64,000 bases of DNA. It comes from an uncultured Solirubrobacterales bacterium (GTDB taxonomy: Bacteria > Actinomycetota > Thermoleophilia > Solirubrobacterales > Thermoleophilaceae). Both the position numbers and the translations under genes were made by a program. The notes beneath the pieces are model-generated. The model was not told the DNA's origin. It did not search any database and was given only the letters and a program-made list of their open reading frames with translations. This document shows positions 12,432 through 27,440 of this stretch, in pieces. Where the stretch lies: the NCBI GenBank assembly GCA_963716445.1, contig OY970313.1, positions 422,731-486,730 of the forward strand, written 5' to 3'. Each line of letters opens with the position of its first letter. The first letter of the stretch is position 1.

Positions 12432-12505
12432 CGCGGGGTGGAGCAGTCAGGTAGCTCGTCGGGCTCATAACCCGAAGGTCGCGGGTTCGAATCCCGCCCC
12501 CGCTA
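12432..12505 (+). tRNA. Initiator tRNA-Met (anticodon CAU)
   Basis: CGCGGGGTGGAGCAG...GGGCTCATAACCC...GGTTCGAATCC...CCCCGCTA. It has the 1:72 mismatch and three G:C pairs closing the anticodon stem, both typical of tRNA-fMet. No encoded CCA. Confidence 0.9.
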
Positions 12506-12838
12506 TTCGCCGGAAAGCCGCTTGTAGAGCGGCTTTAGGCGTTCTTGGGGAGGTCTGCGGGAGGCTTGAAATCGGGAAGTGGGCAACCAAGAGGGCAACA
12601 GCTCGCGCGAGACCGCCCCTTGCGCCTCGGTTGAAGTCCACCTAGCGTCACTGACGGCAAGCGACATAAGTGGCCCCGGCGCAGCGCGAACTGCCCGGGG
12701 CCTGGCACCGAAGAACCAACCTTCGATGCGTCGGGATCGTCCCACATGCCCGTCGGCTTGCCGGGCTGGGTCTCGGCGCGGTCGGGCCGGTTCCTTCGGT
12801 GCGCCACCGAAGGGAGCAGTCATGGCGATCACGATCAA
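12464..12838 (+). repeat. Direct repeat, left copy (tRNA-fMet 3' half plus 'A' arm); partner at 25533..25908
   Basis: About 375 nt at roughly 85-90% identity by eye. It runs from the anticodon (CTCATAACCCGAAGG...) to the first 5 codons (MAITI) of the downstream gene. Confidence 0.9.
12514..12536 (+). terminator. Hairpin after tRNA-fMet (also present in the duplicated copy at 25583-25605)
   Basis: AAAGCCGC ttgtaga GCGGCTTT forms an 8-bp perfect stem. Confidence 0.5.
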
Positions 12839-13229
12839 TCGGGAGCAGCGCGACGCGGTCTACCAGGAGATCATGCTCGACCTCAGCGGGGTCGGGGACA
12901 TCTTCCACGCGCTCAACGGCGACGACTACGAGAAGGCGCGCGAGTATCGCCGTCGCTTCGAGGACGACATGCGCCTGCTCGACGATCTCGGCTGGGAGCC
13001 GGAGCGGGACGCCTACGAGTTCGAGCTGACGATGCCTCGCGCGGACCTCGCGCGTGCGTTGCGACGGCTCAGCGCCAGCGCCCGGTCGATGCTGCACACC
13101 CACATCGTCGAGCCGATCGAGGAGCGCCGCTACGCCGAGCGCGCGCTGGTCGCTCAGGGCGCCTACGGCGACGTCCTGGCTCAGCTCGTCGGCGGCGAGC
13201 AGACAGACCACGGGGACGGGGCGCGGTGA
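12822..13229 (+). CDS. Hypothetical protein (136 aa), first gene of the island, coupled to an XRE regulator
   Basis: ATG 12822 follows GAAGGGAG. The stop overlaps the next GTG (GTGA at 13226-13229). Helical, acidic sequence with no recognisable domain. Confidence 0.6.
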   Translation: MAITINREQRDAVYQEIMLDLSGVGDIFHALNGDDYEKAREYRRRFEDDMRLLDDLGWEPERDAYEFELTMPRADLARALRRLSASARSMLHTHIVEPIEERRYAERALVAQGAYGDVLAQLVGGEQTDHGDGAR

Positions 13230-13537
13230 GCACCACGCCGGGCGCTCCGGTCGAAACCCCGAAGCAGGCGCTCGCCCGGGTGTTCGGCCGCAACCTCGCG
13301 CGCGAGCGCCAGCGCCAATGCAAGTCGATGCGAGCGCTCGCGCGGGCGGCGAACACCCATGGCAGCGAGATCAGCCGCTTGGAGCACGGAAAACGCGACC
13401 CGCGCTTGTCGACGATCGTGCGGCTCGCGCGAGCGCTCGAAGTACCGCTCGGCGCGTTGATCGAGGGCGTCGACTCGGGATACGCGCCCGAGGAGCCCGC
13501 CGGCTGCCCAGCGGGCAGTCCTCAGTCGTCGCCGTAG
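13226..13537 (+). CDS. XRE-family helix-turn-helix regulator
   Basis: KSMRALARAANTHGSEISRLEHGKRDPRLSTIVRLARALEVPLGALI (HTH_3 pattern). The GTG overlaps the upstream stop. Confidence 0.75.
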   Translation: MSTTPGAPVETPKQALARVFGRNLARERQRQCKSMRALARAANTHGSEISRLEHGKRDPRLSTIVRLARALEVPLGALIEGVDSGYAPEEPAGCPAGSPQSSP

Positions 13538-13947
13538 CCGGCCTCCGCTCGCTCCTTGCGGGCGCGCCGCTCCTCGGCCTCGATTCCGTCCACTCGCCGC
13601 AGGACGTTGCGCATCTGGCTCTCGGTCGGTCTGCCGTCCTGCCACGAGCCCCTGCTGAGCCCGAAGCGAGACAGCAGCGTCAGGCTATCCGGCGTCAACT
13701 GCAACCGGTTCTCATGCTCGTCTGCGCGGCGGAGCGCGTGGAGGTTGAGATCGCGATCGTCGTCGGGTAGCCCTTCGACGAAGTTCGCCAGCGTGAGCAG
13801 CGCCTTCTTCGCCCGCACGTTCTCCTTCCGGAGATCATCGTCGTGTTCGTACTCGTCGATCTTTCCCCTGCGCCAGTCCGCCGCGCTGCGGATCGTGGCG
13901 ACAAGCAGACGACGGTGATCGGAGATCGGCCGGACGGGATCGCTCAT
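13522..13947 (-). CDS. Hypothetical protein (141 aa)
   Basis: Its ATG overlaps the stop of the upstream LysM gene (ATGA at 13944-13947). Codon usage is normal for the genome. Confidence 0.5.
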   Translation of the reverse strand: MSDPVRPISDHRRLLVATIRSAADWRRGKIDEYEHDDDLRKENVRAKKALLTLANFVEGLPDDDRDLNLHALRRADEHENRLQLTPDSLTLLSRFGLSRGSWQDGRPTESQMRNVLRRVDGIEAEERRARKERAEAGYGDD

Positions 13948-26011: not shown

Positions 26012-26845
26012 ATGGCCTGGAGCGAGAAGACGGTCTCAGCGAGACTCACGGCCGCCCTCGCCGTGGTGGCAGCATCAGCCGCCTTGGCATCCGCCTGCGG
26101 CGAGTCCGGCAGCCCGGCGACAGGCCGGGCGAGCGACCTGCCGCGAGGCGGCGAGGCGGTCGACCTCGACCCAGCGGACTTCACCACGAAGATCGACAAC
26201 CGCTGGTGGCCGATGCGCCCCGGCACCCGCTGGGTCTACCGCGAGACCGTTGTCGACGGCGCAGAGCTGCAAGTCGTCGTGACGGTCACCGACCGGACGA
26301 AGAAGATCGCCAACGGCGTCGTCGCGCGTGTGGTCCGCGACACCGTGAGCGAGGACGGCGAACTGGTCGAGGACACCTTCGACTGGTACGCCCAAGACCG
26401 CCAGGCGAACATCTGGTACCTCGGGGAGGACACCGTCGAGATCGAGAACGGCAGGATCACGACGCGAGCTGGCTCCTTCGAGGCCGGCGTGGACGGCGCC
26501 CTCCCGGGCATCATCATGCCGGGCGATCCCGAGCCAGGCATGCGGTACCGGCAGGAGTACTACGAGGGCGAGGCCGAAGACAACGGAGAGGTCCTGAGCC
26601 TCGACGAGATAGCCGAGACACCGTACGGACGGTTCGGTCGAGCGCTGCTCACCAAGGACACGATCACCATCGAGCCCGACGTGCTCGAGTACAAGCTCTA
26701 TGCCGAGCGGGTCGGGCCGGTGCTGGTTCTCGGCGTCTCAGGCGGCCCCGGCAGCCGTGAGGAGCTGGTCAAGCTCGACAAGGCTCCCGCCAGCTGGATC
26801 AGGCACGCCGGCCAGTCTCCCCTCGGCAGGGGGCCGACACTGTAG
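26012..26845 (+). CDS. Secreted lipoprotein, unknown function
   Basis: Lipobox signal LTAALAVVAASAALASAC followed by a beta-rich domain. Confidence 0.6.
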   Translation: MAWSEKTVSARLTAALAVVAASAALASACGESGSPATGRASDLPRGGEAVDLDPADFTTKIDNRWWPMRPGTRWVYRETVVDGAELQVVVTVTDRTKKIANGVVARVVRDTVSEDGELVEDTFDWYAQDRQANIWYLGEDTVEIENGRITTRAGSFEAGVDGALPGIIMPGDPEPGMRYRQEYYEGEAEDNGEVLSLDEIAETPYGRFGRALLTKDTITIEPDVLEYKLYAERVGPVLVLGVSGGPGSREELVKLDKAPASWIRHAGQSPLGRGPTL

Positions 26846-27006
26846 GCCTTCGCTCCACCGGGACGCACCGGCAGTCCGCGCAACGACGGAAGCCGTGGCA
26901 GCGCGCTCTACCGCGTGCCGATCAAACTGAGCGGACAGCCGCCCCCTGAGTGGGCGACCGCGTTTCCGCATGCGTGGAACCGTCAGCAGGGCGTGGTCGT
27001 GGCCTG

Positions 27007-27330
27007 TCACGCCGCGGCAAGGACGCGGCCCTCGGTCAGCGCCTGGTGGAGCATCGTGCTCTTGACCTCGCCCCACTCGGCGACGTGGTCGGCGCTTACG
27101 ACGACTACGTCGGCGGCGACGCCCAGTCCGCGCAGCTCACGACGGAGCCGGACCGACTCCGCGTGACGGTTGTCGACCTTGGGCTCGATCACGAGGAAGT
27201 CGAGGTCGCTGTCGGTGCGGGCATCACCGCGAGCATGGGAGCCAAACAAGATGACCTGAGCCGACTCGCCAGCAGCTCGAACCAGGCGATGTCCCGCCTC
27301 TGCGATCAAGGCCTCGTCAACCATGCTCAC
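27007..27330 (-). CDS. Minimal nucleotidyltransferase (MNT-type, antitoxin-like) without a recognisable HEPN partner
   Basis: The GSHARGDARTDSDLDFLV motif (GSxxRG..DxD). Confidence 0.8.
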   Translation of the reverse strand: MSMVDEALIAEAGHRLVRAAGESAQVILFGSHARGDARTDSDLDFLVIEPKVDNRHAESVRLRRELRGLGVAADVVVVSADHVAEWGEVKSTMLHQALTEGRVLAAA

Positions 27331-27363
27331 AACCGTACCTAGCAGATCGGCCTGTGCGGGTCG

Positions 27364-27440
27364 GTGGGCAACAAGTAGGCAACAGCTCCCACAGATTCCC
27401 AGCGATCCTCGACGAACTCCGCCGGCCGCAAACCCACATT
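27364..27440 (+). repeat. 'B' arm repeat, copy 3 (truncated, no tRNA core after it)
   Basis: GTGGGCAACAAGTAGGCAACAGCTCCCACAGATTCCCAGCGATCCTCGACGAACTCCGCCGGCCGCAAACCCACATT. Confidence 0.8.

Follow-up and report, generated by a model that had tools for sequence, protein, structure and literature searches.

A probable decayed accretion array at the initiator tRNA gene of an uncultured Thermoleophilaceae bacterium

How does an initiator tRNA gene come to be kept intact beside a direct repeat of its own 3′ portion, with some 15 kb of accessory genes in its wake? The question is raised by a 64,000-nucleotide stretch of contig OY970313.1 (hereafter the window; GC content ~70%) from an uncultured Thermoleophilaceae bacterium, in which the initiator tRNA-Met gene (tRNA-fMet) is followed by repeats that extend as far as position 27440, among them further copies of its 3′ sequence. 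We conclude that the locus is very probably a decayed accretion array, built at tRNA-fMet through site-specific recombination by tyrosine integrases, and that it is composed of the remnant of an integrative and conjugative element (ICE) together with modules resembling cis-mobilizable elements (CIMEs).

ARAGORN and Rfam together place two tRNAs within the window, one of which is the tRNA-Met(CAT) in question; its anticodon stem contains three G-C pairs and a C1 x U72 mismatch is present, both of them initiator features recognized by eye. Three kinds of sequence recur downstream of it: a core corresponding to the end of the tRNA, a flank to the right of the core that we term the A arm and a flank to its left that we term the B arm. 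These compose the following attachment (att) features:

12432-12505 (+): intact initiator tRNA-Met(CAT), called by ARAGORN and by Rfam (RF00005, 65.7 bits)
12506-12821 (+): A arm copy 1, non-coding, with a GGGCAAC pair at 12581 and 12593; part of a 406-bp repeat
24306-24512 (+): B arm copy 1 and a scarred core (core*), with a GGGCAAC pair at 24313 and 24324
25411-25937 (+): internal attP-like B-core-A junction, made up of the next three features
25411-25532 (+): B arm copy 2, with GGGCAAC at 25418 and 25429
25533-25574 (+): exact core copy, 42 nt
25575-25937 (+): A arm copy 2, with GGGCAAC at 25650 and 25662; its end takes in the first ~6 codons of a 135-aa gene
27359-27440 (+): B arm copy 3, truncated and without a core, abutting the stop codon of the XRE gene at 27439-27819 (-)

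The core, which we refer to as the class I att core, comprises the last 42 nt of the tRNA (12464-12505, on the attL side) and starts at the first base of the anticodon loop. Its second copy is exact, and a 28-nt sub-pattern of it yielded 2 matches against 0 expected; in 6 of 7 relatives, too, the boundary equivalent to position 12464 is where the second core copy starts. A first-pass annotation of the sequence had recorded this perfect 42-nt 3′ half, and the repeat proved longer than noted, since it includes the A arm: 12464-12866 corresponds to 25533-25937 with 91% identity over 406 bp (blastn), the first 199 nt being 98% identical before the A arms fall to 88%. At the start of the A arm, directly 3′ of the tRNA, lies an inverted repeat (AAAGCCGC-N7-GCGGCTTT) plus TTT, which may serve as a replacement for the tRNA's own terminator; a simple terminator scan passed over the post-tRNA hairpins, in which the run of T is short.

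The B arms (24306-24434, 25411-25539 and 27359-27440) share 82-86% identity. The one preceding core* is 86% identical to the one preceding 25533, and the repeat between them extends into the CTCATAA with which core* begins. There follow a 31-nt insert, AACCCGAAGGTCGCG (15 exact nt), a 15-nt insert and GAATCGGTACCCCCCGCT, closing with the CCCCCCGCT end. The interrupted 3′ half annotated at 24428-24512 does follow a B arm and is a genuine scarred core. The first insert is also present at an ICE right end in a related locus, L085, and the scar is therefore older than the window genome; the ending ‘...ATCGG..CCCCCCGCT’ is common to another, L081.

Both kinds of arm carry a paired heptamer on the + strand, in the form GGGCAAC-N5-GGGCAAC in A arms and GGGCAAC-N4-(G/A)GGCAAC in B arms, and paired GGGCAAC is limited to five places in 64 kb, namely the two A arms and the three B arms. 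These pairs are probably arm-type sites bound by the N-terminal domain of the integrase, and, judged by sequence, arm sites, core and arm sites in succession make up the attP anatomy of a tyrosine integrase. The internal junction at 25411-25937 has this very organization. The layout originally proposed for the region, tRNA5′-core-A ... B-core* ... B-core-A ... B, is present in the sequence, and its proposed attP of B-core-A is borne out by the paired heptamers and by related genomes, where the same arms bound whole elements. The motif occurs in loci L009, L081 and L086-L091, and A arms homologous to those of the window in L009, L081 and L087-L089; other relatives have tandem short repeats of their own at the positions equivalent to the arms.

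We next considered what these arms delimit elsewhere. Full-length relatives of the window's integrase (85-92% identity) sit in conjugative elements of ~29.5 kb at tRNA-fMet in other Thermoleophilaceae. The backbone of these elements comprises AAA_10 (VirB4-like), several unknown genes, a C5 methylase, an 874-aa protein, Replic_Relax, HTH_17 and the integrase gene (int), with TpcC and TcpE genes further to the left; the HTH_17 gene of intact elements is excisionase-like (Xis). On the 3′ side of int come 5-8 kb of variable cargo, including restriction-modification (R-M), McrBC, insertion sequence (IS) and toxin-antitoxin (TA) genes, and then B-core. The same A and B arms bound the 29.5-kb elements: on the contig of L086 and L087, tRNA-fMet and the A arm that follows it come first, and the distal B-core stands 29.5 kb further on. 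B-core-A junctions of the internal kind are found again in those genomes.

Measured against this family, the window retains two ends of one element:

12822-14765 (mixed): left-end genes of the ICE remnant, collinear with the intact ICE left end in L087 and comprising the next four features
12822-13229 (+): 135-aa gene
about 13229-13537 (+): XRE gene (Pfam HTH_3/HTH_31), matched in L087
13522-13947 (-): 141-aa gene
13944-~14765 (-): homologue of the ICE 265-aa gene
14804-15052 (-): inverted fragment of the ICE 406-aa conjugation-module gene (blastn to L081 3840-3592, 90%, inverted)
15046-15963 (+): 5′-truncated tyrosine integrase, residues 114-418 of 418-aa relatives

From 12506 to 14765 the sequence is collinear with an ICE left end (A arm, 135/140-aa gene, XRE gene, 141-aa gene and 265-aa gene), with 13522-14765 matching L087 5812-4575 at 72.6%. 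An ORF (open reading frame) at 12579-13229 was considered, together with the XRE gene, as a frameshifted fusion and rejected: its first ~250 nt belong to the non-coding arm, with 12822 as the true start of the gene, and the XRE is a small gene of its own. The right end begins abruptly. The inverted 14804-15052 directly abuts 15051-16011, which matches L081 10345-11312, placing a breakpoint at 15051/15052, and int, from its nucleotide 345 on, and the gene after it are matched by 15051-16368. The ORF at 14968-15963 is a tyrosine recombinase (Pfam Phage_integrase PF00589, 1.1e-15, profile positions 3-170 of 172) whose catalytic domain is complete, with R, K, HxxR, H and Y motifs that by eye resemble the catalytic set, and whose closest homologues are 415-424 aa long and 78-92% identical. 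One of them, P0002, aligns from residue 114 only (window 15046-15960, 92%), and tblastn of P0002 found residues 1-113 encoded nowhere in the window. The annotated truncation of the integrase is thus real, and a full-length integrase with an N-terminal arm-binding region is absent from the window.

Since the left end is collinear, the right end starts within int and an inverted piece lies between them, we attribute the present structure to an inversion/deletion that removed roughly 20 kb. From this collinearity, the deletion evidently took the transfer genes, xis and the 5′ end of int, codons 1-113. A Pfam scan found conjugation (type IV secretion system, T4SS) and relaxase genes absent from 12506-27440; they are present in the homologous elements of L081-L089, and we therefore regard what survives in the window as a remnant rather than an ICE.

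These features can be combined in a simple scheme. The elements belong to the ~29.5-kb Thermoleophilaceae conjugative family, with an attP consisting of B arm, 42-nt core and A arm. Recombination in the region of the anticodon loop would swap the 3′ half and terminator of the tRNA for the element's core plus A, and the displaced tRNA half would end up behind the B arm. A second element of the same specificity, entering a resident att site, would leave an internal B-core-A junction such as that at 25411-25937. Under this scheme, unit 1 (12506-24512) is the ICE remnant, of which the left end and the int-cargo-B right end survive; unit 2 (24513-25574) holds a hydrolase only; and unit 3 (25575-27440) a lipoprotein and the nucleotidyltransferase MNT, ending in the truncated B arm. 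The inversion/deletion at breakpoint 15051 would have stripped unit 1 as described above. The crossover position and the order of integration events in the window genome are inferred. Since the array retains neither an intact integrase nor xis or transfer genes, it would be frozen unless a helper acts in trans.

Genomes with these elements can differ in the number of units at tRNA-fMet, as L088 and L089 do. The two represent the same population, the flanks of their metagenome-assembled genomes (MAGs) being 99.96% identical, and they differ by one 9.4-kb module. In L089 the ICE lies directly at the tRNA; L088 has, between tRNA-core-A′ and B-core-A, an extra integrase-less module of 9.4 kb encoding NERD and three unknown ORFs, and its second A arm is 100% identical to that of L089. 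A change in module number, which the first-pass annotation had proposed to look for among closely related genomes, was therefore found as a one-module difference in a sister population, with none seen in the window's own lineage.

Smaller units bounded by the same arms also occur. L009 has a single 4.3-kb island (L009:4810-9108) with the structure tRNA-core-A ... B-core and the arm motif in both arms; its genes encode a C5 methylase, a SacI-like endonuclease and an HNH/MTaX1 protein, with no integrase, and from this gene content it looks like an att-flanked defence cassette. The nearest relative, L091, carries a 4.8-kb island that ends in B-core and contains gp49-xre-mnt as one contiguous operon. 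The window's xre and gp49 (20238-20875) are 92% and 84% identical to those of L091 in nucleotide sequence, and its mnt (26984-27323) 90%. Because these genes are contiguous in L091 and ~6 kb apart in the window, modules have been reshuffled. L081 and L082 show the order int, cargo, B-core-A, 1.9 kb, B-core (5′ 24 nt), TA cassette and CCCCCCGCTA-A. We observed that the TA cassette (L081:19012-20610, same in L082; DUF2442, DUF4160, XRE and Gp49) lies inside the internal core, between GCGGGTT and CCCCCCGCTA, which suggests that the cassette inserted in nested fashion at the T-loop of a tRNA half with no function.

The cargo of the window and its further units consist of the following:

16007-24305 (mixed): variable cargo from int to the B arm (Pfam; blastn to L081, L088 and L091)
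16007-16368: homologue of the ICE 120-aa gene
16507-17634 (-): unknown 375-aa ORF
17775-18707 (-): frameshifted folD (Pfam)
18704-19345 (-): FTCD_C cyclodeaminase (Pfam)
20271-20618 (-): HigA-like XRE gene (Pfam)
20596-20875 (-): Gp49-like toxin (Pfam)
24569-25396 (+): alpha/beta hydrolase (Pfam Abhydrolase_1, 3.7e-34)
26012-27330 (mixed): integrase-less (CIME-like) module of lipoprotein and MNT
26012-26845 (+): putative lipoprotein, with signal peptide and lipobox seen by eye in the translation
27007-27330 (-): MNT nucleotidyltransferase (Pfam NTP_transf_2; PADLOC PDC-S09)
27439-27819 (-): XRE gene (Pfam), 87% identical to L081 19678-20068, the XRE gene of the TA cassette inside the internal core

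The hydrolase is the only gene between core* and B arm copy 2 (24513-25532), and this interval and 25575-27358 (lipoprotein and MNT) are the att-flanked units without integrase or transfer genes. Unknown ORFs also occur among the cargo at 16007-24305; the unknown cargo ORFs gave no NCBIfam or PADLOC match, the sole cargo match being MNT. Pfam agrees with the annotated frameshifted folD, orphan MNT, hydrolase and toxin-like gene (Gp49-like). Three of the four XRE regulators once listed were recovered by Pfam (about 13229-13537, 20271-20618 and 27439-27819) and a fourth was not found, and for the lipoproteins there is the putative one at 26012-26845.

Several smaller features of the cargo may be recorded here. 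A perfect palindrome at 18473-18496 (GATCTCCGGCGCGCCGGAGATC plus flanking bases) lies ~20 nt from the folD frame shift (~18447-18457). An A-arm fragment of ~90 nt stands isolated at 19491-19578, between FTCD_C and the first of two supposed tRNA relics described below; its identity with the A arms in the window and in L088/L089 is ~81%, and it may mark another lost junction. The segment 16406-16443 is repeated at 19578-19615 (92%).

The two relics had been annotated as degenerate full-length copies of tRNA-fMet (20149-20230 and 22259-22343), a description that did not survive comparison with the tRNA. We instead classify them as follows:

20148-20230 (+): relic 1, class III att-like, a degenerate paralogue of relic 2, ending in CCCGCCCC-GCTA with one base missing
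22258-22343 (+): relic 2, class III att-like, ending in the exact 12-mer of the tRNA 3′ end, CCCGCCCCCGCT, with a hairpin after it

In an alignment over the full length of the tRNA, relic 2 scores 17, equal to the best background tiles, and relic 1 scores 11, which is equalled or beaten by 90 of 5112 tiles. Neither relic is called as a tRNA by ARAGORN or by the Rfam tRNA model (E<=10), and an Rfam E-value scan of 19.9-25.7 kb returned only noise except for the half-tRNA at 25525-25574. Whole-length similarity to the tRNA being no greater than chance, we rejected the relics as degenerate full-length tRNA pseudogenes. What does exceed background is the last ~22 nt of relic 2 (local score 32, background maximum 27), and the similarity of the relics to each other (75% over 81 nt, E 8e-8, blastn). 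A profile built from the pair finds sites in L052 (E 2.7e-4) and L063 (E 8.5e-3) and weaker matches, among them two in L055 (E 0.076 and 1.1), all of them downstream of tRNA-fMet and in tRNA orientation. Across relatives, CCCGCCCCCGCT has 14 occurrences downstream of the tRNA, all on the tRNA strand and none on the opposite one, compared with 2 in 735 kb upstream.

Copies of the tRNA 3′ end sort into three classes. Class I is the 42-nt core, class II reads CGGTCGCGGGTTTGyGTATCAATCCCGCCCCCGCTA and class III reads GGGGAnATGCGT...A[AC]CCCGCCCCCGCTAT with a CGGTAG motif upstream. We observed class II and III sites in L052, L055, L056, L063, L070, L071, L076 and L048, always in tRNA orientation downstream of tRNA-fMet and adjoining AbiE, Fic or other accessory genes, with L052 and L055 carrying two each. 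No integrase was found beside these sites in L052, L055, L063 and L071, where AbiE, Fic and glyoxalase genes stand instead. From their sequence, relics 1 and 2 would be junction remnants of a different element type, one that shares only the last ~13 nt of the tRNA.

We then placed the array in its chromosomal setting. On its left, the order Ppx, (TetR), tRNA-fMet is conserved, and tRNA-Met(CAT) stands directly beside Ppx in 72 of 80 related loci. The window's Ppx/GppA gene (10677-11687, -) is at best 72-73% identical to those of species representatives, all of them Thermoleophilaceae/Solirubrobacterales MAGs, and its best match in a collection of 5.8 billion proteins is 80%. Exact-protein look-ups for 8727-10376, 24569-25396 and P0001 returned no record. 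Further left, a 636-aa ORF (5694-7601, +) includes six copies of a ~51-nt repeat at 5940-7133, spaced 147-372 nt apart; it is probably a repeat-domain protein and has a homologue in none of the 80 related loci.

To the right of the tRNA, conservation ends. None of the window ORFs from 12.5 to 64 kb is syntenic within the 10 kb beyond the tRNA in the 72 relatives, so the possibility that the 15 kb is conserved core synteny falls away, and a search downstream of tRNA-fMet for a conserved gene, meant to place the array's right edge, brought up no neighbour shared among those relatives. Island genes have a GC content at third codon positions (GC3) of 0.82-0.88, compared with 0.91-0.96 in the upstream flanking genes; a tblastx comparison was uninformative because of high-GC noise. 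Debris of the array probably extends beyond 27440, to ~29.95 kb:

29311-29953 (mixed): possible further debris, consisting of RibD_C and 43 nt of the 135-aa gene

The RibD_C gene (29319-29909, -) shows 94% DNA identity with a gene situated 2.8 kb beyond the ICE's B-core in L086, and 29912-29953 is the 43-nt fragment of the ICE 135-aa gene (blastn; tblastn with p135). Beside these matches we note that the Ppx of L086 is only 76% identical to that of the window despite the 94% identity of the RibD_C DNA, and that an ion-channel ORF (29878-30663) has the 135-aa gene fragment joined in frame to its start. Adjacent paralogous ORFs of ~520 aa (30745-32337 and 32512-34050) match the same targets in relatives, and a 166-nt direct repeat (78%) occurs at 35832-35997 and 36314-36479. 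GC content stays low (0.67-0.70) until ~37 kb, and the variable region may therefore exceed the array.

Not every observation sits easily with serial accretion in this lineage. The search brought up no close relative within the species, the nearest Ppx being 80% identical, and an empty attB or another module number was thus not seen in the window's own lineage. The terminal attR, in which B-core would meet native flank, is missing, and unit 2 starts without an A arm, so that the simple serial model fails at some junctions and the history must be more tangled than that model allows. The core* variant shared with L085 further suggests that at least part of the composite was inherited pre-assembled.

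This last point leads to the strongest of the alternatives, a one-step import in which the array, or most of it, was built in another host and arrived through its outermost att sites (cis-mobilization). The scarred core* common to the ICE right end in L085 is what such an import could leave, as are the resemblance of the B/XRE junction to one in the L081 array and the recurrence of modules in L091 in a different order, and tandem transfer of a CIME with an ICE has been documented (PMC5704250). However, nothing separates this history from accretion within the genome, and since the copies of A (91%) and of B (82-86%) have diverged, the units differ in history by either route. We consider import somewhat unlikely, and it would in any case be a variant of the same mechanism rather than an alternative nature of the locus.

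A tandem duplication of one integrated element would instead create the B-core-A junction by unequal homologous crossover between the attL and attR cores, with the units diverging afterwards by deletion. Unequal exchange between direct repeats is a generic process, which counts in favor of this route, as does the 98% identity of the core+A copies over their first 199 nt. Against it, the units share no genes beyond the arms, identity is only 82-86% among the B arms and falls to 88% in the A arms past those 199 nt, and units in sister genomes differ wholly in content, as with the NERD module beside the ICE; we judge it highly improbable. Chance GC-rich matches or mis-joined repeats, which could claim relic 1 and the full-length alignments of both relics since as tRNA matches these lie at background, have a negligible probability as an account of the locus and are effectively refuted for the core, A and B repeats, because chance falls far short of explaining the exact 42-nt copy, the 406-bp repeat or the B arms, the repeats have diverged and are set in unique flanks, unlike the product of assembly duplication, and homologous junctions occur in independent assemblies, which also counts against the artefact that the first-pass annotation had allowed for.

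A decayed array formed by accretion thus remains our preferred reading, and it has well-studied counterparts. Accretion has been described for tandems of ICEs, CIMEs and IMEs (integrative mobilizable elements) and for the actinomycete ICEs (AICEs) of Streptomyces (PMC5704250, PMC9513070); the phenomenon is well known, and no new mechanism is involved here. As in the window, the ICESt1/ICESt3-CIME tandems of Streptococcus thermophilus and the AICEs at tRNA-Arg in Streptomyces reflect successive integrations of the same specificity into one tRNA 3′ end, and accretion in those systems likewise features attP-like junctions of the internal kind and a decay that leaves att-flanked units lacking both integrase and transfer genes; module number varies between strains there, as it does between L088 and L089. 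The window differs in its host, a member of the Thermoleophilia, and in its target, an initiator tRNA; its sole remaining integrase is truncated, with no helper in the window, and it interleaves junction remnants of at least two crossover sublocations.

T4SS-type (MPF-FATA-like) ICEs with TcpC/TcpE/VirB4-like genes are exemplified by systems of the Tn916/pCW3 type. The intact relatives resemble them in having TpcC, TcpE, AAA_10, Replic_Relax, an HTH_17 excisionase-like gene and a tyrosine integrase, whereas the window keeps no conjugation or relaxase genes and only two element ends. Sublocation classes of tRNA-gene integration, including crossover in the anticodon loop, were reportedly distinguished by Williams in 2002. 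The window conforms to the anticodon-loop pattern in that its block of identity runs from the first base of that loop to the 3′ end and the element supplies the 3′ half; unlike that pattern, the same tRNA also has junctions of the T-loop and acceptor end only (classes II and III).

A literature search returned no ICE description for Thermoleophilia. What is new here is the element family, the anatomy of its att sites and the initiator tRNA as a hotspot for several families in this class. A broader and unlikely reading, which we offer as conjecture, is that tRNA-fMet is a class-wide Thermoleophilia landing pad for which at least three element families compete, each with its own crossover sublocation (anticodon loop, T-loop or last 13 nt of the tRNA), with small integrase-less cassettes that are flanked by att arms and carry defence, TA or metabolic genes being captured and shuffled in trans by ICE integrases. 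Such cassettes would include R-M in L009, NERD in L088, TA in L081 and the hydrolase and MNT in the window. If this were true, tRNA att sites would support an integron-like exchange of cassettes, and nested insertion and excision would have left the shared scarred cores as footprints.

For Thermoleophilia, a class of soil bacteria that are mostly uncultured and little studied, the locus offers a well-resolved case of how an island accretes and decays. It brings to light a previously unannotated ICE family, defined by attP anatomy, arm repeats and backbone, for which tRNA-fMet is the hotspot. The locus could mark variation at the level of strains, and the integrase is a candidate site-specific tool for high-GC Thermoleophilia.

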